A stretch of 64,000 nucleotides of DNA from Amphiscolops sp. MND2022 (lineage: Eukaryota). The stretch lies in contig OZ076409.1 in NCBI GenBank assembly GCA_964187785.1, forward strand, positions 74,092,001 to 74,156,000. Direction: 5' to 3'. Below the pieces are notes generated by a model. The model saw only the letters and a list, made by a program, of their open reading frames with translations. It had not been told where the DNA came from and did not search any database. Positions within the stretch are counted from its first letter, which is position 1; the number at the start of each line of letters is the position of its first letter. This document shows, in pieces, positions 1 through 64,000 of the stretch. The position numbers and the translations under genes are program-made.

Positions 1-705
1 GGCCGGTTTTATTCCCAGCAAAACCATTTGGCCCTAAATACGGAGTTTCAGCGTTCCAGCATTCCCGGGCGAAAAGTTGTGGGACTTAGAAAAGTTCAAA
101 AATTTTCAAAAAAATTTTTTTCCGTTATTTGGGCCCCCAAAGTGGGGGAAAAGACCCCCCAACCAGTAAAGCAAGTGAATGCATGTGCAAAGCCCATGTT
201 TAGAGGAGAAAAATGCCGTTTAGAACGTCTTTTTATCTTGGCTCAACGTTGACTTATGACGTTTTGAAGGTGATGATTGGAGGTGTAAAGCACGTGAATA
301 GTAAACGTTATGAGTATTTATCTGATCTGAAAGCCATTGAGATGCAATATGGTTTGCTCAAAACGTAATTCATGGCAGTTTGGCAATCAATCAACACCCT
401 TTGTTGTCGTTTGACATACTTTTGTGTTGTTATAATAAAAAATTTTGTGTATTTATTCATTTTTTTCACATCAAATAACTTGAAACAGTTGAGTACATTC
501 CATCCCCCCCTTCCGGGGGAGATGAGAATGTACTCGCAAAAAGCACCGAACTACGGCCCTTACCTTCCCGAGCTACGCAGTATAAGGATTGCATATTGGT
601 TCCGACATTTTGATAGAGTTATATCTTGGTAATCTGTCTGGATATGCAGAAAAACCAGCACGTGCTTTTTTATACCAAGTTGCTTACAACGACAATTATT
701 TTATA

Positions 706-808
706 TCAACGCCCCCATATTTATCAACGCCCCCCGTCCGTGGGCATGCCGAGGCATGCCCTTCGACGACGTATACCAAGATATACATCGAGCGCGTTAG
801 CCTAGGTG
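706..808 (+). other. Representative conserved 3' terminal module/junction: two TCAACGCC direct repeats, GGGCATGCC-GA-GGCATGCCC hairpin, TTCGACGAC, variable GC-rich segment, CTAG|GTG
   Basis: TCAACGCC at 706-713 and 724-731, hairpin at 742-761, CTAG at 802-805. The layout recurs at nearly every junction. A hairpin followed by CTRR is the established Helitron 3' end signature. Confidence 0.85.
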
Positions 809-2067
809 CCGGGATTTCTATTCGATAAAGTATTTTGCGCGGTTGGGTAGGGCCCCGTGAGCGCGCCAGGGGATTGTGTTAGAACAACCGGAAATTCGGC
901 ATACGATTTTGGCGATTTTCTAAACTATCCATACGATTTGGCTCAAATTTGGCATACGGGTTCCTGAGACAGATATAAGAACTAATTCCTACTGGCGTTT
1001 TGCCCGGAAAATTTTTTTTGTTGCCCAAAATTGAAATTTTCGGCAAAAAAATGCGATTTTTTTTGAAAAATTTTTTTTGAGAGGCCATATCTTTTTTCAG
1101 GGAGCCCGGAGCGGGACGCGTTAAACTAATTATAAACTCTACGGTTCATGGGCTTTACGGAGAACCTAGGCTCGTTTCGATCGGACAAATAGTCTTGGAG
1201 ATATAACTGCATTTTTTGGGAATTTTTTGGAAATTTTTCTAACGGTCCAGCTTATCTTTGCCATTTTTTCGAAAATGTACTCGCCTAAAGGCCTCCCCTG
1301 GCCGGTTTTATTCCCAGCAAAACCATTTGGCCCTAAATACGGAGTTTCAGCGTTCCAGCATTCCCGGGCGAAAAGTTGTGGGACTTAGAATAATTTTTTG
1401 GAAACGCAAAATGTGTAAAGTCAACTTCAGGCCTCCCAAAGTCAAGGAACTTCCACACAACTAGTATTGCAAGTGAATGCATGTGGAGAGTACTCGAATA
1501 GACGAGGAAAATGAGCTGTAGAACGTCTCTGTAGCTTAACCTGACGTTGACTTATGACCTTTTGAGTGTGAGCTTGCTATGCGAGAAAAAATGCAAAACA
1601 TGAAAATGGAAGCAAAGTATCGTCGAAAACCCATCATAAGATGTTCAACTCATCCTAGAGCGGTTTATTTACAGTTGTTTAGTAGAGCAACACCATTCAT
1701 GATCATGTGACCCATTTTTATGGGGAATGAGATTGTCTTATTCATCCGATAGCCCAAAGCAGTTGAGTACATTCCATCTCACCTCCGTGTGAGATGAGAA
1801 TGTACTCGCTAAAGTCCAGGTACTACAGCCCATATTGGTTTTATGCGCCGCTCTGTATGCAAAAGAGCATACTTGACATTTTATAGCTGATATTTTTTTA
1901 AACTGCACTTTGACTCTGACCTGACATACTGAATATTTAGTCCTTATAACATACACATAATTAACGTCAACGCCCCATCCTTGCATCAACGCCCACCGTC
2001 CGTGGGCATGCCGAGGCATGCCCTTCGACGACGCGCACCAAAATATTCCCCGAGCGCGTTAGCCTAG
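806..2067 (+). mobile_element. Non-autonomous unit, ~1.28-kb class (type A), 1262 bp
   Basis: Bounded by CTAG|GTG junctions. Has the GGGTAGGGCCCC box (845-856), the central CCTCCCCTGGCCGG...GGGACTTAGAA block and a long hairpin at 1765-1807. No credible ORF. Confidence 0.8.
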
Positions 2068-3455
2068 GTGGTTGGGGCGGTCCCCAGAACGCACAAGGAG
2101 GCGCGGGGAGGGTCCTGCGCCGACGTAGAATAATTTCATATAATACTAGTATCCTACATGGGTGTTTTAGAAGCGATTTTGGAATCTAACCGTAGGATTT
2201 GGATAATTTTTTGCATGCGGCCATAACTCAAAATTCTAAGAACTTTTTCCTACTGTCATTTTCCCCGCAAATTGTTTTTTGTTGACTTATGGCCGAAAAA
2301 CCGGAAATAACGTCCTTTTCAGACGTTATATCCGAAGTGTTGTCATAACTTTTTTCCAGGGCATGCTAGCGTTCTCGTTCATTTTTACACTTAGTTGCAG
2401 CATCTCAAAATACAACTGGTGGAAAATTTTGGTTGCATTCGGATCACCCCCCACCGAGATAGAAGGGTTCCCCCCTCCAGTTTTACCCTCCAAATTTGCA
2501 AAAAAGTTAATTTTGAGCATGAAGCCGAGGATTTAGCGTACCCGCACCCTTCTAATGTTTTGTTGTACGTTTTAGGGTCAATCTGACGACATGTGTGGTT
2601 TTCACCCCCAACCCCCCCTGGGACCGGAAATGACACTTTTTTGTGTTTTTTGGCAGAATTTAGCCTTTTTCATTACTAGGCAGTCGTTTTAGGGACTCCT
2701 AGCAGGATATCGAAATGGAAATACAACCTGATCTGAACCCAGTGACAACATGTTGGCCACTTGGAGGTACCATCGTGACCGGAAGTGGGGTCAAACCCCC
2801 CTTTTTGTGACCGCTTTTTGACCTTGTGCACCAAAATGCCAACAGCTTGAGGTCTAATGACGCATTCAAATCTGTACAAAGATAGAATGGTAGACAACTG
2901 AAGTCCCGGATGCTCTTTAGCATATACCGGAAGTCACCCCCATGACCGGAAGTTACCCAATGTGACCGGAAAGGGTCCAAAAAATAATGTAAAGTTGAAT
3001 TTTTCACTATTTCAAGACCACTTCATTGAACATTTTCAATCCCAAAACTAGCGTATTGTCTTGTTTTGCTGAATTTATGGAAATTGATGAGCTCTATCAC
3101 CCCCGATAGCCTTCGAAGTTGACCTTGCGTCAACTTTGGAGGCTATCGATACTGAAAATGAACAACAAAGTACATTGTTACTCTCGTTTTTTTCCCGTTG
3201 TTTTTCCTCAAACATTCTTGAGACATATACATGGCCTTTAGTTGAAATCAATATTTAGCCCATGATATAGCTGGAGCAGCGAAGCGTTACACAGACTAGT
3301 GTGGTTTTGAAATTACAATATTTAAAACAACAACTGACCGTCTTAGTCAACTCCACACATTCATACAAACGCCCACCGTCTGTGGGCATGCCGAGGCATG
3401 CCCTTCGACGACGTATGACGAATCCACTCCAACAACACCCGCAGTCCTCAGCTAG
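2068..3455 (+). mobile_element. Non-autonomous unit type B, 1388 bp
   Basis: Distinct interior rich in ACCGGAA(A/G)T motifs. Near-identical copy at 12679-14055. Same terminal module as type A. Confidence 0.8.
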
Positions 3456-6400
3456 GTGGCCGGGAACTTTTTTTCCTGCATTTTTCTGTCCAATTGGGGG
3501 AGGGGCCCCAAGTGGCTGTTATCCGGTTTTACTACCTACCCTAAACACGCTCAAAAAATGACGATCTCGAAAACCACCCCTTAGATTTTCCTGAAACTTT
3601 GCATACAGGCCTAGAATCAAATCCTAAGAACTATTTCCTACTGGCGTTTTTCCGAATTTTTTCAAAAAGTTGGTCAAAAATGCAACAAAAGTTGCCAATG
3701 GACATAAAAAACGCAACTTTTCGACTTTGAGGGCTCATAACTTTTTCCAGAGTGCCCGGAGCGATTCGCACAATAAGAACAATATTGCTCAGCATTGTCG
3801 GAGAAGTGCGTGGACGAAGTTTGAGGTGAATCGAATGAAAATTGATTGAGAAATAAACGCAAATGTTTGTGCATTTGTTGCAAACACCAGTCTATCTCTG
3901 CCATTTTCGCCAAAAATTTTTCCCAGAGCCTTTATAGGAGGCAACCCCTGCCCAAATTTCTGCCGAGCAAACCCATTTGGCCCTAAATACGGAGTTTCAG
4001 CATTCTATGATTCCCGGGCGAAAAGTTGTGGGACTTAGAAAAATTTCAAAAAAACGCAAAAATTGTAAAAAGTAACTTCAGGCGCCCAAAGTCTCAAAAC
4101 TTCCACACAACTAGTATTGCAAGTGAATGCATGTGGAAAGTACTCGGATAGACGAGAAAAATGAGCTATAGAACAACTCTGTAGCTTAATCTGAAGTTGA
4201 CTTATGACTTTTTGAGTGTGAGCATCCTATAGGATTTTAATGTCAAAAATGAGATTTTGTAAGTCATGTCTCATCAAAAACTCATCGGAATACGTTCAAT
4301 CATCCCCATAGCTGTTCAATCACCGTTGCTTAGTAGAGCAACGCCATTTATTGTCTTTGGACCCATTTTGAAAATTTTCCTTACCGTCTTATTCGTCCGA
4401 TATCACGAAACAATTGAGTACATTCCATCTCCCCCCTTGTGGGGGAGATGAGAATGTACTCGCCAAAGACCTGAAACAATGGCCCATATTGGTTTTTATT
4501 TGACTTTTCTCACAATATTGCACACGGATAGCTGTGTTTGGTAAAAGTTTTCCTTTGCACCATGTTTCCAGAAGCAAAACCACTTCTTTAGCTTACTACT
4601 TCCACTCAAACATCACTAACGTCAACGCCACATACTCGCATCAACGCCCGCCGTCCGTGGGCATGCCGAGGCATGCCCTTCGACGATGTATGCCAAATAG
4701 CGCCACCTGGCGCCCCCAATTTCCGCTAGGTGCCGGGATTTCTATTCGATAAAGTATTTTGCGCGGTTGGGTAGGGCCCCGTGAGCGCGCCAGGGGATTG
4801 TGTTAGAACAACCGGAAATTCGGCATACGATTTTGGCGATTTTCTAAACTATCCATACGATTTGGCTCAAATTTGGCATACGGGTTCCTGAGACAGATAT
4901 AAGAACTAATTCCTACTGGCGTTTTGCCCGGAAAATTTTTTTTGTTGCCCAAAATTGAAATTTTCGGCAAAAAAATGCGATTTTTTTTGAAAATTTTTTT
5001 TGAGAGGCCATATCTTTTTTCAGGGAGCCCGGAGCGGGACGCGTTAAACTAATTATAAACTCTACGGTTCATGGGCTTTACGGAGAACCTAGGCTCGTTT
5101 CGATCGGACAAATAGTCTTGGAGATATAACTGCATTTTTTGGGAATTTTTTGGAAATTTTTCTAACGGTCCAACTTATCTTTGCCATTTTTTCGAAAATG
5201 TACTCGCCTAAAGGCCTCCCCTGGCCGGTTTTATTCCCAGCAAAACCATTTGGCCCTAAATACGAAGTTTCAGCGTTCTAGTATTCCCGGGCGAAAAGTT
5301 GTGGGACTTAGAAAAAATTTTTGGAAACGCAAAATGTGTAAAGTCAACTTCAGGCCTCCCAAAGTCAAGAAACTTCCACACAACTAGGATTGCAAGTGAA
5401 TGCATGTGGAAAGTACTCCAATAGACAAGGAAAATGGGCTATAGAACAACTCTGTAGCTTAACTTGACGTTGACTTATGACAATTTTAGTGTGAGCTTGC
5501 TGTGTGAGAAAAAAATTCAAAAGATGAAAATCAAAGCTAAATCTCATCCAAAACTCATCGGAATACGTTCAATGCATCCCAAAGCAGCTTATTTCCAAGT
5601 GTCTGGTCCAGCAACACCATTCAAGAACATTTGACTCATTTTTATAAACTTTGACAGCGTATTATTCATCCGAGAGCACGAAACAGTTGAGTACATTCCA
5701 TCTCCCTTTCGGGGGAGATGAGAATGTACTCGCTAAAGTCCAGGTACTACAGCCCATATTTGTTTTTATGCAACGCTTTTTATGCTAGTGCGCACACGTA
5801 TTAATCTTTTAACTGAATTTTCTCTTGTCGGCACTTTGACTTTGACTTGACATATACTGAAAGTTTTTGTCCTTACAACATACACATGACTTACGTCAAC
5901 GCCCCATCCTTGCATCAACGCCCACCGTCCGTGGGCATGCCGAGGCATGCCCTTCGACGACCCGCACCAAAATATACGTCGAGCGCGTTAGCCTAGGTGC
6001 CGGTGTTTTCTTCACTTTTAAGGATGTTGCGCGTGTGGGTAGGGCCCCTGGCGCGCTCCGTTATCCCCCGGTTTACAACTTAGAAAATTTGAACAATTTT
6101 TTGGGATCTCGAAAACTGGCCACACGATTTGGCTGAAATTTTGCATGCGGCTCCCTATGACAGTTGTAAGAACTAATCCCTAGTGGCGTTTTGCCCGGAA
6201 AATTTTTTTTGTTGACTTATTCACATTTTTAGGGTCAAAAAATGGCGTTTTTTTGAAAAAATTTTTTTTCAGAGACAAATACTCGAAACTGGTGCACCCA
6301 GCGCAGTAACGCCTAGCTGATTTATTGTTGGGCATTTCATGAGGAGTCCGTATACAAATTTTCCTCCAAATCGGATTAAAATTGATTGAGAAATAACTGA

Positions 6401-8537
6401 AAATTTGAGGAATTTTTTTGGAAATTTTCGAAAACCCAGTCTATCTCTGCCGTTTTTTGCCCAGATTTTTTTTGAGACACTCTCCTAAAGACCTCCCCTG
6501 GCCGGTTTTCCTCCCAGCAAAACCATTTGGCCCTAAATACGAAGTTTCAGCGTTCTAGCATTCCCGGGCGAAAAGTTGTGGGACTTAGAAAAAATTTTTG
6601 GAAACGCAAAATGTGTAAAGTCAACTTCAGGCCTCCCAAAGTCAAGGAACTTCCACACAACTAGTATTGCAAGTGGATGCATGTGAAAAGTACTCAAACA
6701 GACGAGAAAAATGGGCTATAGAACGACTCTGTAGCTTAACTTGACGTTGACTTATGACAATTTTAGTGTGAGCTTGCTGTGTGAGAAAAAAATTCAAAAG
6801 ATGAAAATCAAAGCTAAATCTCATCCAAAACTCATCGGAATACGTTCAGTCCATCCAAGAGCGGTTTAATTCCAGCTATATAATGCAGCAACACTATTCA
6901 AGACCATTTGATCCACTTACATTAGTTTTGACACCGTATTATTCTTCCGAGAGCACAAAACAGTTGAGTACATTCCATCTCCCTTTCGGGGGAGATGAGA
7001 ATGTACTCGCTAAAGTCCAGGTACTACAGTCCATATTTGTTTTTATGCGACGCTCTTATGGTTTGTATGCTATTGCGTACACGTATTAATCTTTTAACCT
7101 ATTTTTTGTTGTCTGCAGTTTGATTTTGACTTGACATAAACTGAACGTTTTGTCCTTACAACAGACATGACTAACGTCAACGCCCCATCCTTGCATCAAC
7201 GCCCACCGTCCGTGGGCATGCCGAGGCATGCCCTTCGACGACGTATACCAAGATATACATCGAGCGCGTTAGCCTAGGTGCCGGTGTTTTTCACGACAAA
7301 GAAAGTTGCGCGCTTTGGGTAGGGTCCCGGCGCGCTTTTGGGGTTCATTTTTACAACCTGATAGGACACATGCTGAAATGACCGATCTCCTAAACTACCC
7401 TACCAATTTTGCTGAAATTTGGCACGAAGCTTCCTTGGAACATTCTAAGAACAAATCCCTACTGGCGTTTTGCTGGGAAAAATCAAAAAGTTGGTCAAAA
7501 ATGCGATTTTCCGACAAAATTTTGGGGTAAAATTTTTTTGAAACGTTATATCTCGCCACAGGGTCACGCTAGCGCCTCGCAACCTATGATCGTGTTTTGT
7601 TGGGCGTTGTCTGTAGAACACGTATGCCAAATTTGGTGGCGATCGGACTTAAACTCAGGGAGATATAGCGATTTTTTAGGTGCATTTTTTGACATTTTTT
7701 GCATTTGCCGATTTATCTCTGCCGTTTTTGCCCAAATTTTTTTTGAGACACTCTCCTAAAGACCTCCCCTGGCCGGTTTACCTCCCAGAAAAACCATTTG
7801 GCCCTAAATACGAAGTTTCAGCGTTCTAGCATTCCCGGGCAAAAAGTTGTGGGACTTAGAATAGTTTTTATGGTAACGCAAAATGTGTAAAGTCAACTTC
7901 AGGCCTCCCAAAGTCAAAGAACTTCCACACAACTAGGATTGCAAGTGGGTGCATGTGGAAAGTACTCGGATAGACGAGAAAAATGAGCTATAGAACGACT
8001 TTGTAGCTTAACCTGACGTTGACTTATGACAATTTTAGTGTGAGCTTGCTATTTGGTGTAAAAATTCAAATGATGAAAATCGAAGCTAAGTCTCATCCAA
8101 AACTCATCGGAATACGTTCAATGCACCCCAAAGCGGATTAATTCGAGATGTTTAGTGCAGCAACACCATTCAAGACCATTTGACCCATTTTTATAAGTTT
8201 TGACAACGTATTATTCATACGAGAGCACGAAACAGTTGAGTACATTCCATCTCCCTTTCGGGGGAGATGAGAATGTACTCGCTAAAGTCCAGGTACTACA
8301 GCCCATATTTGCTTTTATGCGACGCTCTTATGCTAGTGCGCATACTTTTTAATCGTTTAACTGAATTTTCTTCTGTCTGCACTTTGACTTTGACTTGACA
8401 TATAGTGAACGTTTTGTCTTACAACTTACAAATGAGTAACGTCAACGCCCCATCCTTGCATCAACGCCCACCGTCCGTGGGCATGCCGAGGCATGCCCTT
8501 CGACGACGTATGCCCTCACAATCGCGGTAGCCGCTAG
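3456..8537 (+). mobile_element. Four consecutive type A non-autonomous units (1274, 1267, 1281, 1260 bp)
   Basis: Junction CTAG ends at 4729, 5996, 7277 and 8537. Shared central block and long hairpin; left halves differ. Confidence 0.8.
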
Positions 8538-10507
8538 GTGCGGGGGGGAAACCCCATCCTTTATCTTGGAGGATTCGGGTAGGGTCCTGAATCCGAGTTC
8601 AGTGCCGCCAGCTCTCAGTAGAAATCTGGGAAATTTTTTGCGATCTCGTGATCTAACCATAGGATTTTAAAGTTGGAGCGGCCCCCACCAGATTTTCCAA
8701 AGTTATTCGCCCCCCACCGGGTTCCAGCGTGATTGAAATATTCTGACGGGGTACACGGACGACCGTTAGGGGTCATTTTAGGGGTAAAATTTATATAATG
8801 TCGCATAACTTTTTTCCTGTTGGATTAAAACTTTGGGACCCTGCTAAAAGTTTCTTGACCGTGTTGCGGGGGCTCCGGAGGTCCAAACCAAATTTTTCTA
8901 TCTTGAAGCTATCTCCAAGTACCCCCCCGCCCAAACCGTTATTTTTCCGGAAACGCCGGTTTTTGACCCGGAAGGAGTCGTCTGAGCGCGGGGTCGTTAG
9001 GTGATGTTTTGGGGACGGCCTCGAGACGAAGCGGGGGATATATAGTTTGCCGACCCCAGTTTACCCCCCGCACGGGAAATGACCGTTATATGAGCGGGAA
9101 AAATGCCCCCCTCCACGTTTTACCGCTATTTCCGGTGTGAAGGAGTGGGAGTAGCGCGTCGGGTGTTATATAACAAAAGTAGGTTTAGACAAGGACCTAT
9201 CGGAAACATGTAGTTTGGGACCCCCTGGACCAACCCGTTAGCGGGAAATGGGGCTTCCGCCTCCTTTTTTTACTGCTAAAACCGTAAAATGGGCATTGAG
9301 GGGTAAATATCTCGTGAACGCGTGGAGCAATCGTGTCCATCACTACTACAAGGTTTCATACCCATGATATGGTGCCTTCAGGGGGGCAAACAGATTTCCG
9401 CTATCTATCACCGTTACCGACTTGGCCCCCCAGCCTAACCGCTATGTGACCGGAATTGTCACTTTTTGAGCCCAAAGGGTCGGTCCCAGCCGGGGAACGT
9501 TAGGTAACTTATTGTAGTACTCAATGAGACGAGTTGGGGGATATAGTTTCAGTCACCCCCCGTTACCCCTTGGGACCGGAAATGACCGTTATGTGGGTAA
9601 AATTGCAATTTTTATACTTTTAAGTGTATTTAGGTGCGGAAGGAGTGGTAATAGGTGCTTGGACACTATATGAGGTAAGGGAGGACGTGAGGCGAGCATT
9701 CGGAAATAACCGTTATATTGACCCTAAAGTCCCCCTGGTACCGTAAACGACCGGAAATGGTCAAATTTTGTGTCTATTGGGTACAAATGTTTAGTATTTT
9801 GTAGATAAAAGTATCTATTAGGTGTTTCGACGGTCTGCAATAGTGAACATAGTCATGAAACCTTGTGGGGGGTAACGGGGTATATAGCACCGGAAGTCCA
9901 AACCGTTGGACACAGGATAGGTTTTTGGTTTGAAAATGTCTTTCGGCGTACTTTTGTCGACTATTATGGACTATTATTAAAAATTAAAGTTTTTCCATAT
10001 AGTTTCAGAGACTCCGAAACCTCAACCAACATAACCGTTACATTTTGATAGCCTTTCAAGTTGGCCTGGTGTCAACTTGGAAGCGCTATCCTTCTGAAAT
10101 CGTTAATCAAGAGTGTTTTTGGGTAGGTATATATTGCATTAGTACCAATTAGAGCTTCATCAATAGTGTATCAACGACAAAAACTATGCCGTCATGATTC
10201 CGTTATTAGAATCATAGTGAGCAAATTGTTGAAAAAAATGGTTTTTTCCATACAAAATGTGTCCTAAATGCCAGGAAACCTATTTACCTAACAAATGGTA
10301 TTAATTGGAATGTATGTAACAGATTTATAAAAGTTCAAATTGAATATTACATTTCATTATGGAAGCTGAAACGTCATATTTTAGTTTAATTAACGTCAAC
10401 GCCACACACTTTACATCAACGCACACCGTCTGTGGGCATGCCGAGGCATGCCCTTCGACGACGTATGACAAATCCATATCAAACGACGCCCGTACATCCC
10501 GGGCTAG
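8538..10507 (+). mobile_element. Non-autonomous unit type C, 1970 bp
   Basis: GC-richer interior starting GTGCGGGGGG. Homologous to the units at 20851-26785. Same terminal module. Confidence 0.8.
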
Positions 10508-43381: not shown

Positions 43382-43459
43382 GCAACGAAGTATTAAACAA
43401 CTAATGAAATATGATTTTTTTCAGAAACTCTGTTATTGTACACATATTGCTTGAAAGAC

Positions 43460-50745: not shown

Positions 50746-53700
50746 ATGGCACGTGGTCGTCGAAGTCGTGCTCGATCCACACGTAACACATGCACTCGAT
50801 GTAGAGTATTCATATCCAATTCCGCTACTCTTTGTGACAATTGCATTGGAGCTTCTCAACGAGCTGGTGTTATGGATACTACTTCACTTCCTTCAGATGA
50901 TCATCATCCAGTCATCTGTTTATTATGTAAAACAGAAAACGCATTTGTCGATTCTCTTTGTACAAGTTGTTGTCCAATTACTTTGACTACTATTACATCA
51001 GCCGAATGTTTCAAATGCAGGCGTATTCCCTTGACTGACCTAAACAGAATTAACGTTGGAGAAATGAAGAGAACGAAGTTTGGCTGCAATATTACAGAAA
51101 CATCATCACTGAACGTTGTTAACCTGTGCGATGAATGTACTCAATACTGTGTGGCAGGTCGTCAAAATTCTTGGTCCAGTGTTTGGCCTAGTGCTATCCT
51201 CGATTTTTTATGTGGCAAATACAAAGGATCGATATGTGGAAAACCGTTTCATAAAGTTTTGCCTTCAACAATTATGCATGAATATGAGCATCTCCTGAGG
51301 AATAACAATCCAAATGTTGAAACATTGTTCGAAGACCTCACCCCAAAAACAAAAGAATATAAAGACTTGAGGAACGATATGAGAATTGAAAACATCAAGA
51401 AGGCATACAATAAATATTGTTTCCCGGAGGTTAAATGCCCTTTCGGTTGTTCAGAATTTGTTGGCGAGAGTGGGCTTATTCCCATGCAGTACTTTTTAAA
51501 AATGTTGGATACAAACTTCAATTTCGGTAACACTAATTGGAAAAAATGCTTCCGATGTGTTAGACCTGATTGGTTGTGCAAATATGTCCACAATGATATC
51601 TTCGAAATCAAGCCTCATTTAGTTGTTGATGAAATTAAAGGCATTTGTGTATCTACGTGTCGTTTCCATAAGGGTGGTTCAAGTAAAATGTTTGTTCATC
51701 CCCCTACGAATCCCACAGGACGATTGCCATCAAAAACCTCCGATAGATTGGGCCCTGCAACAATTTGTTATAATTCATACAAGCCCGCTAAAGCAAATTA
51801 TTCAACTCATACCTACTCAATGGGTGTAGCCAAAGGAAACTTCTCAGGCATCAGTTCTACAACAATCAGCTGCAAAAGAAAGTGGGATATTGCTTTTGGA
51901 AATGATGATGTAGTCCGAGAATCACTATGCAGTAACAAGCGTAAAGACATTAAGCCTCTTCTCCAAAAATTGGTACATACACGTGAAATCTCACAAGATT
52001 TGTTTGAAAGCATAACTTCTGATTGTTCTCTGCCTGATTGTGCTTCAATAGCTAAATGCTTACAAAGTTCAACGTCTGTGCCTTTCGACGCTTCAATGGC
52101 CATAAAAGATATGCAGGAAAAAGGAATTGAAGCGAAATGTTTTCCATTTTTTTCGCACCCCTTGGACAGTTACGGTTGTGAGCCTCCTGATTTAGCAATT
52201 GCAGATCCAGAACAACTTCATATTTGGTGTGTTGCTGTTATGTTTTCGTTGAGTTGTACATTCCATATAAATCTTTGGAATTCCAATTCTCCTTTGGATA
52301 TTCATTTGAAAGACCTTTACAATCTTATGATATGCTACGATGGAAGGGCTCCTGATTCAACTCGCAAAAGAAATTTAGTTACTTGTCTTCAAAGTCTAAA
52401 TAACCAAGTATCTGATGTTTTATCGACTAATATTCGAGAGTTTCTAGATACCATTTCTTGGTGTAAAAATTACATTGTTACAGACAGAGACTCTGTAGAA
52501 ACATTGTTGAGCGATAATGACAATACAGATATCGTAAGCTTTACAACTCAGTGCCGGATGAGCCCAAACAACACGTTTCTTCAGGACAGATTGGTTACAC
52601 AAAGTAGACTTTCAACATACGAGCTGCGTTCAATTACAATGATAGACAACAATAAGTTGAAAACACTTGTAAGACATGGAAAACAATATTGTTGCTGGTG
52701 GATGTTTTCAAGTGATTCATTGACACCTTCAAAAATACAAATGGATGAAAATTCACTAATGTGCAAATTCCATTCAAGTTGGACATGTTGTCATTACGAA
52801 AGAATAGATTCAGTGGATATTCGTGAGAGAAAGTATCAATATTTAGAATATTTGGGAGGTCAAGGAAGGTTCATTTGCGAGGATCACGATGTTCCTTTAA
52901 TAGTTGCAACTTCAAAACAATCAACTGAGTGTTCTTTTGACGAAAGATGTCATCGAAAAGCTGCATGGAAATGCCCTGAAGGTTCTTGCACATCCGCAGT
53001 TTGCCGCAAACACTTCAGTCAGCACGCTGTAAATTCAGACAGAATACGATTACAGGCACAACCTGTGACTGCAACTAATATTTCATCACCTACAGAGACA
53101 TATTTAGGTAATGATAATCGGCAATCTCAACAATCTGATGAAGACAACTTGTCCGACATCTCTGACCCAGAATCAGATTATGATGAATTCTCGTTTGTAA
53201 ATTTTGCAACAGATTCTGGTCCCATTCAAAATGCCACAGATTTGAGTGCTACGAATTCAGGTGACGTACCACAATTTCTGGATGATTCAAACAACAGTAT
53301 TCCAACTCATGTACTGCTGAATTTTGACTGTCACGTACTTCAAAGGCAGAATTTGAGAAATGAAAGACACAAAAGTTCTTCCCGTTTTTTACAAAACATT
53401 GTTGCCTCGTCCGCGGGTGATTCAATTCCTCTCATTTATCCAGATTCATGTCTTTTTCCAACACAGTATTATCATGAACAGCAAGATAAAACGATGACAG
53501 GTGCTATTCCAGCACCCCTTTACAACGAGAAACAAAGCAAAATGTTCAACTTTGCCGACATTTCAGATCAAAAACGAACTGCTCTGCTGAACCCAGCTTT
53601 GCTCCAATCAACAGATGTTAGATACATTCAAACAACTTTTGACACAATCTTCAACAAAAATCTCAATTGTTCAGACACAAGGATTGTTCTGAACCGCGGA

Positions 53701-56700
53701 TTTCAAGAAATAACAAACAAAAACAGTAAAAGCATTTCGTCAGACAAATCAAGACTTCAGTTTGACAAAGCCGACTCACGAGTGAGAGTAAATGAATTAG
53801 CTGCACTTCTGAAAAGTGAACCAGCTACGTTTTTTCTGACTTTAACATGTAATCAAAGAGAACACTTTGGTGTTGCCCCTATTTTTGATGCATTGGAAAC
53901 CAAATATGATAGAAACAACAAAGACGATTGGAATAAAGCAGTACAGGCCGAAATAGTTCTGTTAACGAGAGCCTGGCATCGTTCGGCCATGGCTTTAATG
54001 GAATACATTGAAAAATCACCAGACAAACCGTTGGGATCAGTGACAAAAATTTGGTTTAGATTCGAATTTCAAACCACAAAAGGTAACCTACCACATATAC
54101 ATGCAGTAATTTGGACGAAAGAAACCAAGGAAGAACTCAAATACAAAGTCTCATGCTCAGGAAGTTCAGCTTTATTTGAATTAAAAAAAATTGCAACGGA
54201 AACCAATTTGATAGATAATGATGATGTTCTGAATTGGTTAGATCAACTGATGACCGTACAAACGCATTCGTGTGAGAAAGCAAATTACCGATGTCACAAA
54301 GTAATTAGTGAAAATAGAACAACACATTGCAGAGTTCCAAAGTATCCTCAGTCACACACCTACTCTTGGAGAAAGATTCCGACCTTCCATTCTGACGAGG
54401 CGCTGGAAAAACTTTTTTATCTTGACTTGGCCGTCCGTTCTCAAAATCGAGATGATACATATGATGTTTCCAGTGCACTACAAGGAGGGAAATTTGAATA
54501 TCCAGCGTCAAGTGACGAGCATCTTTCCCCATTCAATACCTTACTGTTTGTAATTACAAAGTCGTCACAAAATCTTCAACTTTGTGATGAATACCTGTCA
54601 GCAAGGTATATTGCTAAATATGCTGCAGGAATTGAGGAACGAGCAGACGCACGAATAGATCCCAAAACTTTCAAGGATATAACAATAAAAACGAATGGCA
54701 TAAAGAACATTAAAATTGCTGGCACGAAGTCAAAATTTGTAACAACAGATAGAAAAACTCTTGTTCAAATCCTGGCCCTTGTGGAAACAATTTGGTGGAT
54801 ACTTGGATTTGATTATGTTTACAGTTCAGTAAAATTTATTCATTTATCTACACACGAGAAGAGTGAACGAGCAGGAAAATTGAAACGAAAAACAACGATT
54901 GCTTCGTCAATAGAATTACCAAACTACGTTAGAAAAATTTCAACTTTCGAATCAACAAGACATTTCACCCAAAGTCAATTACTATTGTTAAAAGACTACT
55001 TATCATGTGAGTTTGTTAATTGCAAGATTTCCATATTCAGTGGCAGACCTCCAGCTCTTTTGTTTGTCGATAACCCAAAACTTTACTTCACATGGTTCAA
55101 AAGATCGTTCGTCAAGAGTCCAGAGACAAAAGTAAATTCCAATGTACATCTTTCAACGTGGATAGATGTATTTGGTTACGCTGTTCATTTGAGAAAAATA
55201 TATTTAGACGAATTTGAAAAGTTTTATGATCAAGCAATTTTGAATGGAAATCACAACTTACACCGATTCAATAACGACACTTCCATACTTTACCTGAAAA
55301 ATGATGTTACTGGAATAAAAACAGCCGAAGACATGCCTGTTCAAGTTGTAACATCCAACATCGTTCCTTCAAATCCATACAAGTTTCTTGTACACTTTGC
55401 TTTGTCTTATGGATGTTTTGAAACAGAGATTGACTTGTTTAATCAATCGAATATGATCGAAGTCTTCAAATATTGTAAACTTCTTCCAATTACTACACCT
55501 TACACAAGCGAACACTATTATGCTCTTGTGAAGAAATACGTTCTCGATGAACTCAAATTTTTACCGGGAGCAAGTCGGTCATTCGACCGTCATTTTCTTT
55601 CAAGCTTCAATGTGTTCTACAACCTTGTCATGAATAACCAAGTTCATTATGATGCAATACCTTCTGTTTTGCACTGCGAACTTTCAGAAAATGCTGAGAT
55701 TGATTATTTGTTATTTAATAATCAGAAACGTGCGAGAAGCGTGCAAGGATGTCTGCTCAATTCTGCTCTGACACCTTTACGATGCAAACAAAACGACTTT
55801 TTGGAAGCAACTCGAGAGAAACCATTTAATTACAATGTTTTGTTCCCACGAGCTGACGGACAATCTAATGATTCTTATGAATTTCAACAGCATGTATTTA
55901 AAAGATGCCTAATGCGTTTGGACTCCTTTATGCGTGGCAATCAGGGTTTTGTTAAACATCAATTGTTTCTCGGACGTCCTGGTAGTGGGAAAACCTTAGT
56001 ATGCACTATGCTTTTCTTAAAAGCTGTCGCAAGAGGACTAAATTGTTCAATTACCTGTTTGAGTGGCGAACGAGCTCAACAATTGGGTGGAGAGCATGTT
56101 CACAAAATGTTTAAATTCCGAGTCAATAAAATGCAAGTACCAGAACATATGGCAAGTCAAAGCATAAATGCACTCATGAAAGATGTAACCCGTTTTACAG
56201 ACCTTGAAAGACTTGACGTTTTATTTATCGATGAAATTGGACAACTTAACGCTGAGCTTCTTTGTGCTATGGAGTTAGTCCTTCAAACAGTTAAAGAAAA
56301 TAGACTTCCAATGGGTGGTGTTTTCGTAATTATGTCAGGAGACCCCAAACAGTTGAGGCCCCCTAACGGTTCACTTGTTTGGCTTTCACCTAAACTGCTT
56401 AGCAATTATGATTTTCATTATTTCCTTCACTACGTACGTGCTGTTCCTGGATTGTTGAGAGAAATTCTTTACGAGCTTGACGAAAATGAAATCAATGAAT
56501 CAAAAGCTGCTGAGATTGCCAAAGTCATAGTAACAAATTGTATTATCAAGGATTCTTGGAACAATGTAAATGATGATTTTTCAATGCGTGTATTCAGCAC
56601 AAGAGCTGCCGAACATGAAGCAGTAAAACAGCATACAGCAAAAATTACTAACAATACATCTTGTCCATCTGTAACAATGAATGCTGTAGATGAACAAAGT

Positions 56701-57837
56701 TCTACAGGATCTTCAATTTGGCTTCCAACTAGCGTTCAGAACTCCAACTATATCGATACGCAATCAATAACTCCAAAAAAAATTCTATTTTACAAAGGAG
56801 TTCTGCTTCGATTCACGGCCAACATTCCAAACATTCAAGCCAGACAGGGACAATTGTGCATTTCACTAGATGTTCCAGAACAATCAGCTACATCGTTAGC
56901 AGTTCTAATTGCACCTCCAGGCTGCCGAAGAGCTCCTACCACAGATGAAGGTACTTTGCTTAATTGTGGTTGGCAGAAACATAATGTATCCAAAGTGTAC
57001 ACCCCGGTGATAAATAATGGATCATGTTTTCTTAGAAGATATTTTTTCCCATTGAAAAACTACGTCGCGTCAACAATACACAAATGTTTGGGTGATACTT
57101 TTCCCAAGATTGTTACAAAAATTTCCGTAACTGAGAGCAATTACAAGATCTGGGAAAAAGAACAGCTCCTGGTTTTACTCAGTCGTGTGAGTAAACTTGA
57201 AGATTTAACTTTTGTAGGATCTGCAGAAGAATTACAAACTACTTTAACAACGATCATCCAGAAGCAGTCTTGTTGGAATAATTTCATAAACAATCTACTT
57301 GTCAAATTAGCTTTACCACCTCACAACCTAACAGCATCAATGAACCTGCTTAGCAGCAATTTTTTACCTTGGAATATCGTTTTACCTGCGGATGGTACGG
57401 GATTTGTTTATGTACTATTGAGTACCAAAATTGCAAACATATTTTACATTGGAGAATCAGTTTGTTTACGAAACAGTCTCAGAGAGCACAACTGTGGAAT
57501 TGGTTCAAAAGATACTGCACCAATAGAAAGACGACCATGGGCATTGCTTACATTTGCCACCGGTTAGAAAATGTTTTGTTTAATTCTGTATTCAATATGA
57601 AATCATGTATAAATTAAATATTTTATATTGTTGTGTCTTTTAGGATTCACAACTGAAAACATGACAGCCAATGGAAGACAAAGGAAGAATCTACAACTAG
57701 CAATGAAATATCAAGCATCATTACTGGGTCCAAACTTGTCTTCTGCTTCAGTATTTGCTTCATTTTCAAATTGTGTAAGAAGTTATGCACAGCAAAATGA
57801 TTTGAATTTACAAGTAATACAATGTGGTGCCTTGTGA
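50746..57837 (+). CDS. RepHel-type transposase paralog, two exons (50746-57562, 57644-57837), ~2336 aa, with C-terminal GIY-YIG-like domain
   Basis: Same Rep (FFLTLTCN, FEFQTTKGNLPHIHAVIW, YIAKY) and helicase motifs as copy 1. Removing an 81-bp GT..TAG intron restores ATG-FTTENM collinearity with copy 1 and gives almost the same length. Confidence 0.92.
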
Positions 57838-58633
57838 AAAAAGAACATAACTGCAATACTACATATGTTTGGTTGACCTAGTCACAAAGTGACGTTAGGT
57901 CAACCGTTTCAATCACTGTGATATAGACACTGCAATGGTGCTGTTTTGTTTCAAAAACTTATTACAAAGATGAACTGAAATTGTTGATAAATTATCTCAC
58001 ATTACTCAATATGGGCATATATATTAATATGTTAAAAATAAAAACCATACTCAGAAAAAACGTTGTATTATATATTAAAATTTTGCAAAAAATTGAGAAC
58101 AGGAATTAAATGAAAAATATTATAAATTATATAATTAAAATTTATTCTATTCAATGAATCGGAAAATTGTTCACTTGATAAAAGTTATTATCGTTATGAG
58201 TATGGTTTATTTTTAATAATGACAATATTATATTAACATAAGAAAATGATTTTAACTTGGATCTTCAATACAATTTCATTAGGGTGTTTTATTTGTATTT
58301 TGTTGAGCAGTTAATGAGGCACATGTTGGTTAAAATACATAACTTTACTCCCATTGTAAATATGTATTGGGATAATTGTATGCATTAGTTAATGATTTTA
58401 ACTTTATTGATGAAAGTTAATAAAAATCATAAATTGAAAACAGATGAAAATGAGAAAGTTAAATTATTTACCATTAAACATTTTTCGTTAGATAAGGCAA
58501 AAAAGTAGAAAATGAAAATCTGGTTTTCTTGGTGATTAAAAAATTTTGTGGTTCATATTATTAATATATGTGTCTGAAATTGAAAAATGTATGTTTTTTT
58601 CAGTTTGTGACTTGATACTTTAAAGCCTGAATC

Positions 58634-59920
58634 ATGCCTGTTATAAACAAGGATTTATCGGTAGAAGAAGCCGCAGCACGAGTACAAACTAAATTAACAA
58701 TCATGAAGTTGGATGATTTACTGGAAGGAGGCAACAGCGACAGACGCTATTTATTGTGTAATGTACTACACGCAAAGAAGTGCGTCAAATCTGTATCTTA
58801 CTACAAAATAAACAATGGACAAAAACAGAAACAAGAAATGAATTTTAACAGATTTGTCCTTATGGGTTCAGCAGATACAGAAAAGGTCATAGCAATATTT
58901 ACATATACTCAACAAGAAAGCGCTGAACTTCTTCGATTTTGTAATTATTTACAACCTGGCAATACGTGTGCACTTATAAGGGGCAAGTTTGATCAAAAGT
59001 ACATGGGAGCTGTGTCAACAACGCCTATCATAGCTACAGTAGAACCTTTAGTTCCATTAACTATAAAAACATGTCCTCCTATTCCTTGTCCTCGGACTAT
59101 TACTGCTCCAGACTTTTGTCATTTCATTGTCAAAACTAAGAATTTGGTTCTAAATAATATTGATGCTGTGGGACAGGTCTGCAACGGGATTTTCTGTGAC
59201 GGACAACCGAAAGGAGACTGTCCATGTCTGGAAGTGGACAATAGAAAGACAAGCTGGGTTGTGACTGCAAACTTAGCATCTGACAATATACATTTTACTG
59301 CAAAAATCAGATCTAAAAGGCTTATAAATTTATTTGCACCAAATTGTAAAAATGCAGACCCGAATAAAAGAAGTTTCGATGTTCTGGATTTCGCAGATGC
59401 TGTCGAAAAGTGTGTGGAACACGTAAATTCAAAAAATGGATGGGTTATATTTGGTTGGGTCAAACCAAACGACGTTGCAGTTGAAACAACCAACTATGAT
59501 TGCGATCTCCATATTGTGCATATCATTCCACAAGTTGCTGCAGATACACTTTCAAGTAAGAGAAATTTTTTTGAATCTCCAAATTCTTTTGAATACAATT
59601 TTCATCAATAATAAGTGTAAAGGTTAAATTTTTTTTAACACAAAAAAAAATCCAAAATTAAATTCAATAAACAAGTTTAATGTATGCACTCTATGAAAAC
59701 ATTATTACCTTAAAAAAATTTTTAAAAAGGTTTCATTTTTTGGGAATATTCTAAATAAAACTTCATAGAGATAATGAAATGTTTATTTTCAGCTGCATAT
59801 ATCGAGCTACAATACAAACTACCACCTACGCCTACTCTTGAAATTGAAGAAATAACTGCGCCTGTGGAAAATGAACAGACAACTGCTCCTGTACAAGCTG
59901 AACAGACAACTTCAGAATGA
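58634..59920 (+). CDS. Accessory ORF2 paralog, two exons (58634-59555, 59793-59920), 349 aa with acidic C-terminal tail
   Basis: Homologous to the 43460 gene. Donor A|GTAAGA and acceptor TTTTCAG. Exon 2 reads AYIELQYKLPPTPTLEIEEITAPVENEQTTAPVQAEQTTSE*. Confidence 0.85.
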
Positions 59921-60631
59921 AATCAACTCCAACTTTCAAATGAAAAATTGTAAATGACAACTTGGAAGAAAAAATTAGATTCTCTTGCAAACCAGAATAC
60001 TAAATATTCAATTGGATTATCATGTGAAGTTTACAAAAAAGTGTTATAAACTTACGTACCGAGAAATTGTTTATTTATACAAAGTTGTACGCAAATGAAT
60101 AAATACTATGATGTTTTTGCTTTGAATTAATTATAAACGTTGATTTACAAAGTATATTTCAAGTTTGAATTATCATTGTCTTGATTTATGATAAACTCAT
60201 GATGGTGTGCAATGTGTAAATTTGTTTTAGAACAAATTACCTATTTTATAAATATGTGTTAAATTGAATAAAAATTAACGTAAAGTTTATTTTTTCAAAA
60301 ATAATATAGATGCAATGTCTGTATGAAGTAAGAAGTGAAAAAAATGAATACATTTATAATAGTCATTTAAGAAACTAAACTTCAGAAACTTGAGTTAGCA
60401 AAAAAAATGAAAAGTTTAAAAACAAATGCAAGTAGAAGAAAACCAAATACAAATAGGATAAACTCGAACAGGTTAAGCATTACATCTAAAAAAATTTTTA
60501 AATTTGTTCTCCATAATGGTACTCGTGTAGCAAAATTAATTACAACGTAAATAGTCCGTAGGCATGCCGAGGCATGCCTTTCGACGATGTATGCCAAATA
60601 CCCTTTACCGACGCCCGCGCTCCCTGGCTAG

Positions 60632-63600
60632 GTGCCCGGATTTCTATTCATTAAAGTATGTTGCGCGTGTGGGTAGGGCCCCTGGCGCGCTCTTGTGTCC
60701 CTGTTCTCATAACTGCAATTTCCGGCAGCATTCTGAGCGATTTTCTAAACTATCCATACGATTTGGCTGAAATTTGGCATGTGAGTTCCTATGACAGTTC
60801 TAAGAAACATTTCCTACTGGCGTTTTGCCCGGAAAATTTTTTTTGTTGACTTATAACGGTTTTTTTGGTCAAAAAATGCAATTTTTTCAAAAAAAATTTT
60901 TTTTCGGAGCCCATATCTTTTTTCAGGGTGCCCGGAGCGGGACGCGTTAAACTGATTATAAACTCTACGGTTCATGGGCTTTACGGAGAACCTAGGCTCG
61001 TTTCGATCGGACGAATAGTCTTGGAGATATAACGGCATTTTTTGGGAATTTTTTGGAAATTTTTCTAACGGTCCAGCTTATCTTTGCCATTTTTTCGAAA
61101 ATGTACTCGCCTAAAGGCCTCCCCTGGCCGGTTTTAATCCCAGCAAAACCATTTGGCCCTAAATACGGAGTTTCAGCGTTCCAGCATTCCCGGGCGAAAA
61201 GTTGTGGGACTTAGAAAAATTTCAAAATTTTTCAAAATTTTTTTTTCCGTTTTCCGCCCTCCCCCCCGAGGGGAAAAGACCCCCCAACCAGTAATTTGAG
61301 TGAATTCATGTGGAAAGGCCATGTTTAGAGAAGAAAAATGCCGTTTAGATCGTCTTTTTATTTTAACCTGTCGTTGACTTATGTTGTTTTGAAGGTGATG
61401 TTTGGATGTGTGAAGCATGTGAAAAGGTAATTTATTGTGTCTTTAGCTCTTCTAAAAGTCATTGAGATACACGGTGTGTGACTCAGAACGTGTTTAATTC
61501 TAATTTAGCAATGCATCAACACTTTTTTATGTCTTTTGACTCTGTTTTAAAAAATTTTTCTGACTAAAATCAAAAATTATTTATAATTATTCACATTTTT
61601 TTTCTGATCTCATGACTCGAAACAGTTGAGTACATTCCATCTCCCTTCACGGGGGAGATGAGAATGTACTCTTTAGAGACCAGGTACTACAGTACTTACC
61701 TTCCCGGAGCAACGCCCCATAAAAATTGCGTTTTGATCCAGATATTTTGACATAATTTTATCTTTGTAATTTGACTGGAAATGAAGAAAATGCCGCACGT
61801 GCTCTTTTATATCAAGTATCTTAACAACGCCATCTCTTTTACGTCAACGCCCCATACTTTACACCAACGCCCCCCGTCCGTGGGCATGCCGAGGCATGCC
61901 CTTCGACGACGTATACCAAGATATACTCCCGAGCGCGGTAGCCGCTAGGTGCCGGGATTTCTATTCGATAAAGTATGTGGCGCGTGTGGGTAGGGTCCCT
62001 GGCGCGCTCTTGGGTATGGTGTTCACCAGCTAGGAAATAGGGGTCGATTTTTCGGGATCTCCTAAACTAGCCACACGATTTGGCTGAAATTTGGCACACG
62101 TACCCCCCTCGGCTCGGTGAAGATGATTTCCTACTGACGTTTTTCCCGCAAAATTTTTTTTGTTGTCCAAAATAACGGTTTTTGGGGTAAAATTTTGAAT
62201 TTTTTTTGAATTTCATCTTATATCTCGCCACCGGTTTACGCTAGCGCTTCAAAACCCTGCTAAAGAAAGCTTGCAAACTGTCTCAGGAATGCGGTGTGAA
62301 ATTTTCAGCTCAATCGGACTTAAACTCGGGGAGATATAGCGTTTTTCCGGAGCGGGGGGGTTTCATTTTTCTAACGGTCCAGCTTATCTTTGCCATTTTT
62401 TCGAAAATGCACTCGCCTAAAGGCCTCCCCTGGCCGGTTTTATTCCCAGCAAAACCATTTGGCCCTAAATACGGAGTTTCAGCGTTCCAGCATTCCCGGG
62501 CGAAAAGTTGTGGGACTTAGAAAAGTTCAAAAATTTTCAAAAATTTTTTTTCCGTTTTCCGCCCTCCCCCCCTAGGGGAAAAGACCCCCCAACCAGTAAT
62601 TTGAGTGAATTCATGTGGAAAGGCCATGTTTAGAGGAGAAAAATGCCGTTTAGAACGTCTTTTTATCTTGGCTCAACGTTGACTTATGACGTTTTGAAAG
62701 TGATGTTTGGAGGTTTAAAGCACGTGAATAGTAAACGTTACGTTTATTTATCTGATCTGAAAGCCATTGAGATGAATATGGTTTGCTCAAAACGTAATTC
62801 ATGGCAGTTTGGCAATCAATCAACACCCTTTGTTGTCGTTTGACATACTTTTTTGTTGTTATAATAAAAAATTTTGTGTATTTATTCATTTTTTTCTCAT
62901 CAAATAACTTGAAACAGTTGAGTACATTCCATCCCCCCTTCCGGGGGAGATGAGAATGTACTCGCAAAAAGCACAGAACTACGGCCCTTACCTTCCCGAG
63001 CTACGCAGTATAAGGATTACATATTGGTTCCGACATTTTCATAGAGTTAAATCTTGGTAATCTGTCTGGGTATGCAGAAAAACCAGCACGTGCTTTTTTA
63101 TACCAAGTTGCTCACAACGACATTTATTTTATATCAACGCCCCCATATTTATCAACGCCCCCCGTCCGTGGGCATGCCGAGGCATGCCCTTCGACGACGT
63201 ATACCAAGATATGTTTGAGCGCGTTAGCCTAGGTGCCGGTGTTTTTCACGACAAAGAAAGTTGCGCGCTTTGGGTAGGGTCCCGGCGCGCTTTTGGGGTT
63301 CATTTTAACAACCTGATCTCCCGTTGCACGTATGTCCGATTTTCCAAACTATCCTACCAATTTTGCTGAAATTTTGCATGTGGGTCCCTATGAACATTCT
63401 AAGAACAAATCCCTACTGGCGTTTTGCCCGGAAAATTTTTTTTGTTGACTTATTGACAATTTTAGGTGCCGAAAATGACGTTTTTTCAAAAAAAAAATTT
63501 TTAGGAGCCCATATCTCGCTCCCAGGTGCCCGGAGCGGGTCGCATGTGGACGTTGATATTGCTAGGCACTTCGTAAGGAGTCTGTAGACAAATTTTGGTT

Positions 63601-64000
63601 CAGATTGGATGAAAATTGATTGAGTAATAGCCGCAAATTGGACGCATTTTGTCGAATTTTTTCGAAACCCCAGTCTATCTCTGCCGTTTTTTGCCCAGAT
63701 TTTTTTCTAGACCCTCTCCTAAAGGCTTCCCCTGGCCGGATTACCTCCCAGCAAAACCATTTGGCCCTAAATACGAAGTTTCAGCGTTCTAGCATTCTCG
63801 GGCGAAAAGTTGTGGGACTTAGAAAAAATTTTTTGAAAACGCAAAATGTGTAAAGTCAACTTTAGGCCTCCCAAAGTCAAGGAACTTCCACACAACTAGG
63901 ATTGCAAGTGGATGCATGTGGGAAGTGCTTAAATAGGCGAGGAAAATGAGCTATTATAAAACTCTCTAGCTTAACCTGACGTTGACTTATGACAATTTTA
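60632..64000 (+). mobile_element. Two complete type A units (1317, 1284 bp) and one partial unit
   Basis: Junction CTAG ends at 61948 and 63232. The partial unit from 63233 is near-identical to the start of 16604-17885. Confidence 0.8.

Follow-up and report, generated by a model that had tools for sequence, protein, structure and literature searches.

In this study, we analysed a 64-kb window (C1:74,092,001-74,156,000) of a 1.07-Gb eukaryotic assembly, which is occupied by an array of co-oriented units together with the genes of a Helitron-like Rep-helicase (RepHel) transposase. The sequence CTAGGTG occurred 27 times on the + strand and not once on the - strand, against a chance expectation of about 1.5 per strand under a first-order Markov model. 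The cut point was placed between CTAG and GTG from copies flanked by host DNA. The junctions so defined delimited 26 whole units that were contiguous without spacer, 24 of them short (1,260-2,965 bp) and two long (12,227 and 13,914 bp). The 27 same-orientation junctions of the initial annotation, and its two coding elements of 12-14 kb interleaved with short units, were thus found as described. These elements belong to a separate Helitron-like clade, and the anatomy of the genome suggests that its integration target is probably its own head-to-tail junction. On the same basis, we consider it likely that units are added one at a time by the transposase at junctions already present. The features of the array are as follows (^ marks the cut point).

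1-64000, + strand: array segment of co-oriented, head-to-tail units without spacer, extending at least 50 kb to either side
802 (802-808), 2064, 3452, 4726, 5993, 7274, 8534, 10504, 12675, + strand: starts of CTAG^GTG junctions
14052, 15313, 16600, 17882, 20847, 22820, 24790, 26782, 28062, + strand: starts of CTAG^GTG junctions
29340, 30629, 31911, 33199, 45426, 46714, 60628, 61945, 63229, + strand: starts of CTAG^GTG junctions
806-33202, + strand: 21 short non-coding (non-autonomous) units of 1.26-2.97 kb, listed in the next three lines
806-2067, 2068-3455, 3456-4729, 4730-5996, 5997-7277, 7278-8537, 8538-10507, + strand: short units
10508-12678, 12679-14055, 14056-15316, 15317-16603, 16604-17885, 17886-20850, 20851-22823, + strand: short units
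22824-24793, 24794-26785, 26786-28065, 28066-29343, 29344-30632, 30633-31914, 31915-33202, + strand: short units
33203-45429, + strand: autonomous element 1, 12,227 bp, GTG...CTAG
33234-33263, + strand: 5' subterminal hairpin of element 1, with a G-rich loop
45359-45378, + strand: 3' subterminal hairpin (A/G)GGCATGCC-GA-GGCATGCC(T/C), lying some 50 nt upstream of the CTAG end
45430-46717, + strand: short non-autonomous unit separating the two autonomous elements
46718-60631, + strand: autonomous element 2, 13,914 bp, GTG...CTAG
60632-61948, 61949-63232 and the start of 63233-64508, + strand: short units after element 2

The hairpin box GGCATGCCYTTCGACGAY lay at most 70 nt upstream of 26 of the 27 junctions, the exception being the junction at 15313. 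The unit at 14056-15316 had no box before its CTAG, and several box-less families exist. The short units contained no open reading frame (ORF) with a family match and no Rfam match. The first ~800 bp of element 1 were 82-84% identical to the 1.26-kb units, and the first 780 bp of element 2 were 94-95% identical to the commonest 1.29-kb units. The unit at 17886-20850 was a composite with a 400-bp internal duplication at 73% identity, and it is probably two units fused through a deletion. In the 2.17-kb unit the 3' box was present twice, with the additional, internal one at 12424.

The composition of the array was examined in a 164-kb region consisting of the window and 50 kb on each side. This region contained 93 junctions (91 CTAG^GTG and two CTGG^GTG) and 92 whole units. 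Single-linkage clustering placed the units in 37 clusters at 90% and 21 clusters at 80% global identity, with global alignment limited to pairs that passed a BLAST pre-filter; summed BLAST identities exaggerated the likeness of the 2-kb units, and global alignments were therefore taken instead. The initial annotation had spoken of at least three families joined at one invariant site. The diversity was confirmed and the figure of three was an underestimate. The site was the same at 91 of the 93 junctions and not strictly invariant, since the other two were CTGG^GTG and a CTTG^GTG junction was present in another array.

We found 5,081 3'-box motifs genome-wide, and CTAGGTG followed within 20-48 nt in 4,678 of them. 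CTAG plus A, C or T followed in 69 and CTAGG plus other bases in 52; motifs outside the CTAGGTG (4,678) and CTAG-other (121) classes were left unsorted. Rep matches numbered 120 in the genome, of which 34 lay at C1:70.56-76.46 Mb, all on the + strand, and 28 of these 34 were in open frames of at least 2,200 aa. Five of six 1.3-kb samples taken within this interval were same-orientation array units, as were none of the two taken outside it. Because of the co-oriented Rep matches and the sampled units, a multi-megabase array is likely in this interval, which was sampled and not read through, and the array around the window probably spans megabases. An apparent array start at C1:74,049,211 was considered as host DNA and rejected, as it proved to be another autonomous element. 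Canonical Helitrons of the same genome were dispersed over many chromosomes; loci L076-L083 held scattered elements of the HLE1 and HLE2 types in which long frames were open. The array at C1:3.5 Mb consisted mostly of 2-kb units, and box-less 1.07-kb families grouped together (loci L001-L005, L007 and L012-L015). Such differences in make-up between arrays may reflect a preference of lineages among junctions. Array orientation was locally inverted at C1:23.977-23.980 Mb (L008) and C1:72.44 Mb (L088), and blockwise changes of strand were seen among the Rep matches of C2:102-104 Mb and of C3:2.4-3.9 Mb.

Breakpoints and target site

If units had been laid down as pure rolling-circle concatemers, neighbours would be copies of one another. 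Among the 91 adjacent pairs, none was 99% identical and one was 97% identical, and this origin was rejected. Thirty pairs of units were at least 98% identical, and a single dimer was shared among them; two units that were 100% identical were nevertheless flanked by different neighbours on both sides. In the pairs of at least 98% identity, identity at the left junction was 99.5% inside the unit and 37% outside (35% in random pairs), and at the right junction 93% inside and 46% outside (45% in random pairs). Precisely where the 7-bp core ended, identity fell to the background level, and each unit kept its own variable tail after the conserved box. These results bear out the combinatorial breakpoint at CTAG^GTG proposed in the initial annotation: the same left end followed different right ends in the units at 2068 and 12679, and the same right end (..GGCGCAAACTTGTCCGCTAG) was followed by different left ends at 16604 and 31915. 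Three copies of a 12-kb element, 96-98% identical and bounded by junctions, were found, two on C1 and one on C2. They had three different right neighbours; two of the left neighbours belonged to the commonest family and the third differed. The best match of a unit ranged from 77% to 100% identity, and some units had no close match among the 92, so that ages were interleaved. Units of at least 99% identity were scattered along the array and not gathered at one entry site.

Satellite-like behaviour, in which ordinary tandem repeats are shuffled through their conserved ends by homologous recombination or gene conversion and the transposase only seeded them, is a very improbable source of this pattern. 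Internal mosaics in 10 of 71 units would fit it. The identity of near-identical pairs, however, breaks at the 7-bp core and not at the 30-bp conserved box 45 nt upstream, and the variable tail travels with its own unit, so that the breakpoint comparison largely refutes it. Seven bases are too short for homologous recombination. Breaks at internal homology, which the initial annotation had set against its own proposal, are not what separates near-identical units from their neighbours.

All 92 units began with GTG, as did the solo copies. The 3' ends of units were CTAG or CTGG, and CTTG was also among the ends. The sequence of the 5' stem varied between families with its pairing kept, and the outer pair of the 3' stem covaried (G:C in 105, A:T in 12, mismatches in 0). 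No terminal inverted repeats were found in the 92 units, the longest inverted end match being 4-9 nt, mostly 5-7. The 14 left flanks in apparent host DNA were CTAG (5), CTTG (4), CTCG (3), CTGG (1) and GTCC (1), that is, CTNG in 13 of 14, and T stood at +2 in 110 of the 121 right flanks other than CTAGGTG. Left out of these counts were 7 of 12 loci without a 5' end within 2.2 kb and 3 of 20 loci with a missing end. In a filled/empty paralogue pair (L036 versus L034), the empty site read CTTG^AT, and the filled site was the same plus GTG...CTAG without duplication. The left and right tetranucleotides were unlike in several solo copies, which means that there is no target-site duplication. From the host flanks and the empty paralogous site, the element is GTG...CTAG and the target is CTNG^DT. 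The empty site ruled out that CTAG is a duplicated 4-bp target or forms the 5' end, and so did solo copies that had CTAG at the right side and CTTG or CTCG at the left. A solo copy at L031 interrupts a stretch that looked tRNA-like when inspected visually; a run of ARAGORN on this locus gave no match.

The host-flanked copies showed neither an A^T nor a T^T target. Dispersed singletons at A^T sites, which the initial annotation had regarded as speaking against it, were accordingly not the rule: the target was CTNG^DT, and the great majority of 3'-box motifs ran into CTAGGTG. The junction CTAG^GT itself matches CTNG^DT, so that the junction agrees with the target consensus. The 157 kb of units contained 568 internal CTNG^DT sites on both strands, about six per junction. 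These were essentially unused, and joints fell at the 93 junctions instead. An assembly artefact, with the order of units scrambled by the assembler, is scarcely credible. The units were mostly unique (64 clusters at 97% among the 92), false joins would be expected in long common stretches rather than at 7 bp, and both the clean host borders of arrays and the empty-site paralogue argue against it.

The transposase and its clade

The coding features of the two autonomous elements are as follows.

35895-42902, + strand: RepHel transposase 1, 2,335 aa, open frame with a Cys-rich N-terminus
39237-39245 (HIH) and 39750-39764 (Y..KY), + strand: HUH Rep motifs of transposase 1
41115, + strand: Walker A of the Pif1 helicase of transposase 1
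from about 42597, + strand: C-terminal GIY-YIG-like domain of transposase 1
43460-44386, + strand: ORF2 of element 1, 308 aa, C-terminal half putatively OB-fold-like
50746-57837, + strand: RepHel transposase 2, 62% identical to transposase 1
58634-59611, + strand: ORF2 of element 2, sharing 64% identity with its counterpart in element 1

Pfam Helitron_like_N was matched at 31.4 bits against a cut-off of 28.9, and PF05970 (Pif1) was above cut-off in both window transposases, with Pif1 matches in PDB. HUH Rep motifs 1-3 and the two tyrosines were intact, and the motifs were kept across 61 aligned proteins; comparison of Rep with canonical Reps gave an HH probability of 99. For the Rep domain model (pLDDT 83), the Helraiser transposase was the sole clear fold match (Foldseek E 5.8e-5). 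Against 7LCC the model gave Z 13.2 and a root-mean-square deviation of 4.2 over 217 aligned residues, the next match having Z 5.6. A sequence search of PDB with the whole RepHel returned helicases only. These results indicate that the genes within the array encode Helitron-like RepHels, as initially annotated. Transposases 1 and 2 differed mostly at third codon positions. Transposase 2 had an apparent 81-nt GT-AG intron (57563-57643) near the gene end, and none was seen in transposase 1.

The GIY-YIG-like C-terminus was under the Pfam cut-off in the window proteins and over it in relatives, and was weakly similar to SLX1 (E 0.03). The GIY-YIG arginine has a catalytic role; it was missing in both window proteins and kept in 17 of 24 motif-matching relatives. 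ORF2 was 308-325 aa long in the two long units. Its OB-fold atlas features scored 0.93 with a recognition score under the tool threshold, and its model (pLDDT 50) gave Z 6.7 against Teb1 OB-C; no Pfam family was over cut-off and Foldseek gave no match at E 0.001. This weak but consistent picture suggests that the C-terminal half of ORF2 is OB-fold-like, of the RPA70C/Teb1/POT1 type. ORF2 relatives adjoined RepHel relatives in 5 of 18 metagenome loci. The four long ORFs of the window matched no tyrosine recombinase (IntI) family, and no apurinic endonuclease or DUF6570 match was found in them. A third autonomous element, whose protein was 33% identical to the window transposase, was joined to the same array via CTAG^GTG. 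A divergent autonomous element (locus L025:5570-6211) had a 214-aa open frame without a Pfam match, which we take to carry SGNH-hydrolase-like motifs.

A Rep-domain search gave 59 long proteins and 509 cluster representatives at E <=0.001, among them a protein from Perkinsus olseni. Unrooted FastTree trees were built with 21 clade, 19 HLE1-type and 7 HLE2-type proteins (47 of 66 sequences, 19 being dropped for no recognised domain). All group labels in the trees were assigned by us, those of HLE2 from DUF6570 and similarity. The clade, the HLE1 type and the HLE2 type formed three splits with support of 0.98-1.0 in the Rep, helicase and joined trees. The clade's own split had support of 1.0 in all three, and its stem was the longest. 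Mean identity of the clade to the HLE1 or HLE2 type was 18%, compared to 22.5% between HLE1 and HLE2. In motif 2, Q and H were separated by 7 or 9 residues in all 59 clade proteins, compared to 5 residues in 113 of the 120 canonical proteins, and an OTU domain was found in some relatives. These sequence comparisons indicate that the transposase belongs to a clade separate from HLE1 and HLE2; unsampled HLE2 subgroups could be its home, since the tree has seven HLE2-type sequences. HELIANO reports four unclassified HLE clusters (PMC11417382; the works cited here and below are covered in part).

Viral contigs contained no relative. In the metagenome relative L039, a 134-bp stretch behind the RepHel gene (5781-5914) was repeated inverted at the contig end (12731-12864), and the sequence shared by the copies ends at CACACTAG, a possible 3' end.

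Probable integration into junctions and its alternatives

Elements of this group almost always sit exactly at the seams between their own kind, most likely because the seam is the insertion site of the enzyme. Many unrelated families would therefore accumulate in huge one-way arrays. In the mechanism that we propose, the HUH domain would nick after CTAG, the helicase would displace a single strand, and the next CTAG would close a single-unit circle with the junction CTAG^GTG, as Helraiser and IS91 do. The enzyme would then exchange strands between the circle junction and a chromosomal junction. The latter would be preferred over a bare site because hairpins on both flanks complete the recognition site. 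Every insertion would turn one target into two, so that an array whose seed was one rare event at a bare CTNG^DT of the host would grow from within, in one orientation, and accept any family using the same core. Binding of the displaced strand would probably fall to the OB-fold-like protein, and branched intermediates may be trimmed by the GIY-YIG-like domain. We lean, by a narrow margin, to the broader view that this widespread RepHel clade treats the hairpin-flanked CTAG^GTG as a recombination site common to deeply diverged lineages, which would build a multi-megabase safe harbour unit by unit. The arrays could form a chromosome domain, putatively heterochromatic or centromeric.

Without any targeting of junctions, read-through of the 3' end could copy strings of units, which would spread by insertion at host CTNG^DT and by block duplication and lose single units by precise excision. 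This is unlikely, and it would account for several findings that weigh against integration into junctions. One dimer (units 17-18 and 58-59) was common at 99.7-99.8% (P 0.016 versus shuffles at the 99% level), and the unaligned tails at C1:3.49-3.51 Mb point to a block of three units that is repeated there. Families cluster locally, with 23 same-broad-family neighbours versus 12.2 in shuffles, and small mixed arrays occur at host sites. Read-through and block copying leave unexplained, however, how lineages 33% identical first met in one array and why the 12-kb element has different neighbours on two chromosomes, and one shared dimer among 30 near-identical pairs is hard to reconcile with them.

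Other observations also count against junction integration. The internal mosaics had breakpoints inside units, and inverted and deleted joints occur. Seven non-junction ends were inspected in or near the large array. One was a clean nested insertion at an internal CTTG^GT, and the rest were mutated junctions, an inversion, joints without the consensus and non-array DNA. One host flank was GTCC (locus L057), and among the CTAG 'host' flanks there may be ends of families that escaped recognition, which was the case for one of them. Among the metagenome relatives (18 loci), no array was found in the 10 longer contigs examined and termini were undefinable, and self-targeting is accordingly shown for this genome only. 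Because of the common dimer, the block repeat, the family clustering, the mosaics and the odd joints, block copying and ordinary recombination also act; some block duplication and recombination inside units contribute to the arrays alongside insertion into junctions.

Joining could also take place off the chromosome, where Rep would fuse circles of different families into mixed multimers that then insert at host sites, chromosomal junctions not being targets. The chemistry is the same as that of junction integration, and exact breakpoints, a single orientation and mixed small arrays all fit. A multimer made at one time would hold only families active then, and yet units of very different age are interleaved and arrays reach megabases. 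We regard this origin as improbable, and as slightly less likely than read-through. These results suggest that insertion of single units into existing junctions best describes the growth of the array.

Relation to known systems

The window elements resemble HLE1 (Helraiser, wheat Xuan-Feng) in having a Rep-Pif1 transposase with the Helraiser fold, a 3' hairpin, a CTRR end, no target duplication and an OB-fold-like gene downstream. They differ from HLE1 in the 5' GTG instead of TC, the target CTNG^DT instead of A^T, the 3' hairpin about 50 nt from the end, the additional 5' hairpin, a motif 2 two residues longer, the GIY-YIG-like domain and the separate clade. For Helraiser, head-to-tail circles are documented, and it shows no clustering near donors, unlike the arrays of the window (PMC4778049). 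Xuan1 likewise has no genomic tandems (PMC13286980). With HLE2 (Helitron2, Helentron, FoHeli) the window elements share hairpins at both ends, and the OTU domain of some relatives is a further likeness. Unlike HLE2, they have neither asymmetric terminal inverted repeats nor a T^T target, and their proteins, in a separate clade, lack an apurinic endonuclease or DUF6570 match. Occasional self-insertion and short tandems are reported for HLE2 in Fusarium and Metarhizium (PMC5148889), and one Sphagnum HLE2 family captured GIY-YIG (PMC11417382).

Helitron tandems in the covered literature are truncated copies of a single element or short runs (PMC12628747, PMC5148889, PMC12001565, PMC11934779, PMC13404089). 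A review (PMC12628747) describes plant centromere Helitron arrays (Xiong et al. 2016), which are truncated, decayed copies of one element with many 5' ends and one 3' end, and dimers of transposable elements formed by site preference (McGurk and Barbash 2018), with one family each. The window units are instead whole and belong to dozens of families. Further related literature is found in PMC3627910, PMC10288648 and 10.64898/2026.09.17.752431.

The closest match to the target logic of the window elements is the bacterial IS91 family. Its tetranucleotide target (CTTG, GTTC, CTCG) resembles the IS91 terminal cleavage CTCG, there is no duplication, and circles with joined ends are known on the IS91 side (10.1101/2025.01.24.634351). 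IS91 differs in being bacterial with a stand-alone Y2 transposase without helicase, compared to a 2,300-aa RepHel fusion in the window, and no mixed multi-family arrays are described in the covered part of that source (10.1101/2025.01.24.634351). TrwC and adeno-associated virus (AAV) Rep, in which an HUH and helicase enzyme integrates DNA into a resident copy of its own nick site (PMC6049929), offer the analogy by which the window system most likely works. TrwC and AAV Rep are not transposons, and they carry out single integrations without a self-multiplying target or arrays.

In integrons, a short core connects diverse units, which a site-specific enzyme that recognises hairpins moves one by one. 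The window array is similar in its diverse units at a short core and its probable single-unit movement. It differs in having an HUH enzyme and not a tyrosine recombinase, and no cargo genes; no attI or promoter was found, and all window junctions look equivalent. The term integron-like in the initial annotation therefore suits the architecture. It does not extend to the short units, which have no family-matching ORFs, or to the mode of entry, since there is no single entry site and the recombinase genes are themselves cassettes.

The accepted view of Helitrons is that their insertions go to scattered dinucleotides and that tandems arise solely via over-replication of one element. Here an entire clade appears to have a target like that of IS91 and to integrate at its own junctions. 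A literature search covering few subscription papers or Repbase Reports found nothing on the clade, on GTG...CTAG ends combined with the target CTNG^DT, or on mixed Helitron arrays joined at junctions, and we see a better than even chance that this is a new mode of self-targeted integration. Insertion into its own junctions would let a transposon avoid genes without the need of a host sequence and would lead directly from a transposon to a repeat array of megabase size. It would also link the target logic of bacterial IS91 to eukaryotic RepHels and add one clade beside HLE1, HLE2 and the Paramecium group. Many transposase genes are open and young, with a defined 7-bp core and two hairpins, and target choice and joining by a Helitron are therefore directly testable. 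If the explanation is true, the enzyme would be an integrase that acts specifically on junctions and handles units of 1 to 14 kb.

The telomere-targeting Helitrons of Paramecium are also outside HLE1 and HLE2, site-specific and in one orientation, and their own 3' end CCAA also matches their own target repeat (PMC13085455). Their target, in contrast, is the host telomeric repeat, which separates the copies, and in Paramecium Hel01, inspected by eye, the spacing of motif 2 is the ordinary one and a GIY-YIG domain would not fit (PMC13085455). In the same source, a 44-nt Paramecium 'Mosaic' satellite of unexplained random order contains CACCTAG, the reverse complement of the junction, both within the units blue1 and blue3 and where green units adjoin in tandem (PMC13085455). 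This match was noted post hoc and could hint at the same junction insertion acting on tiny units.

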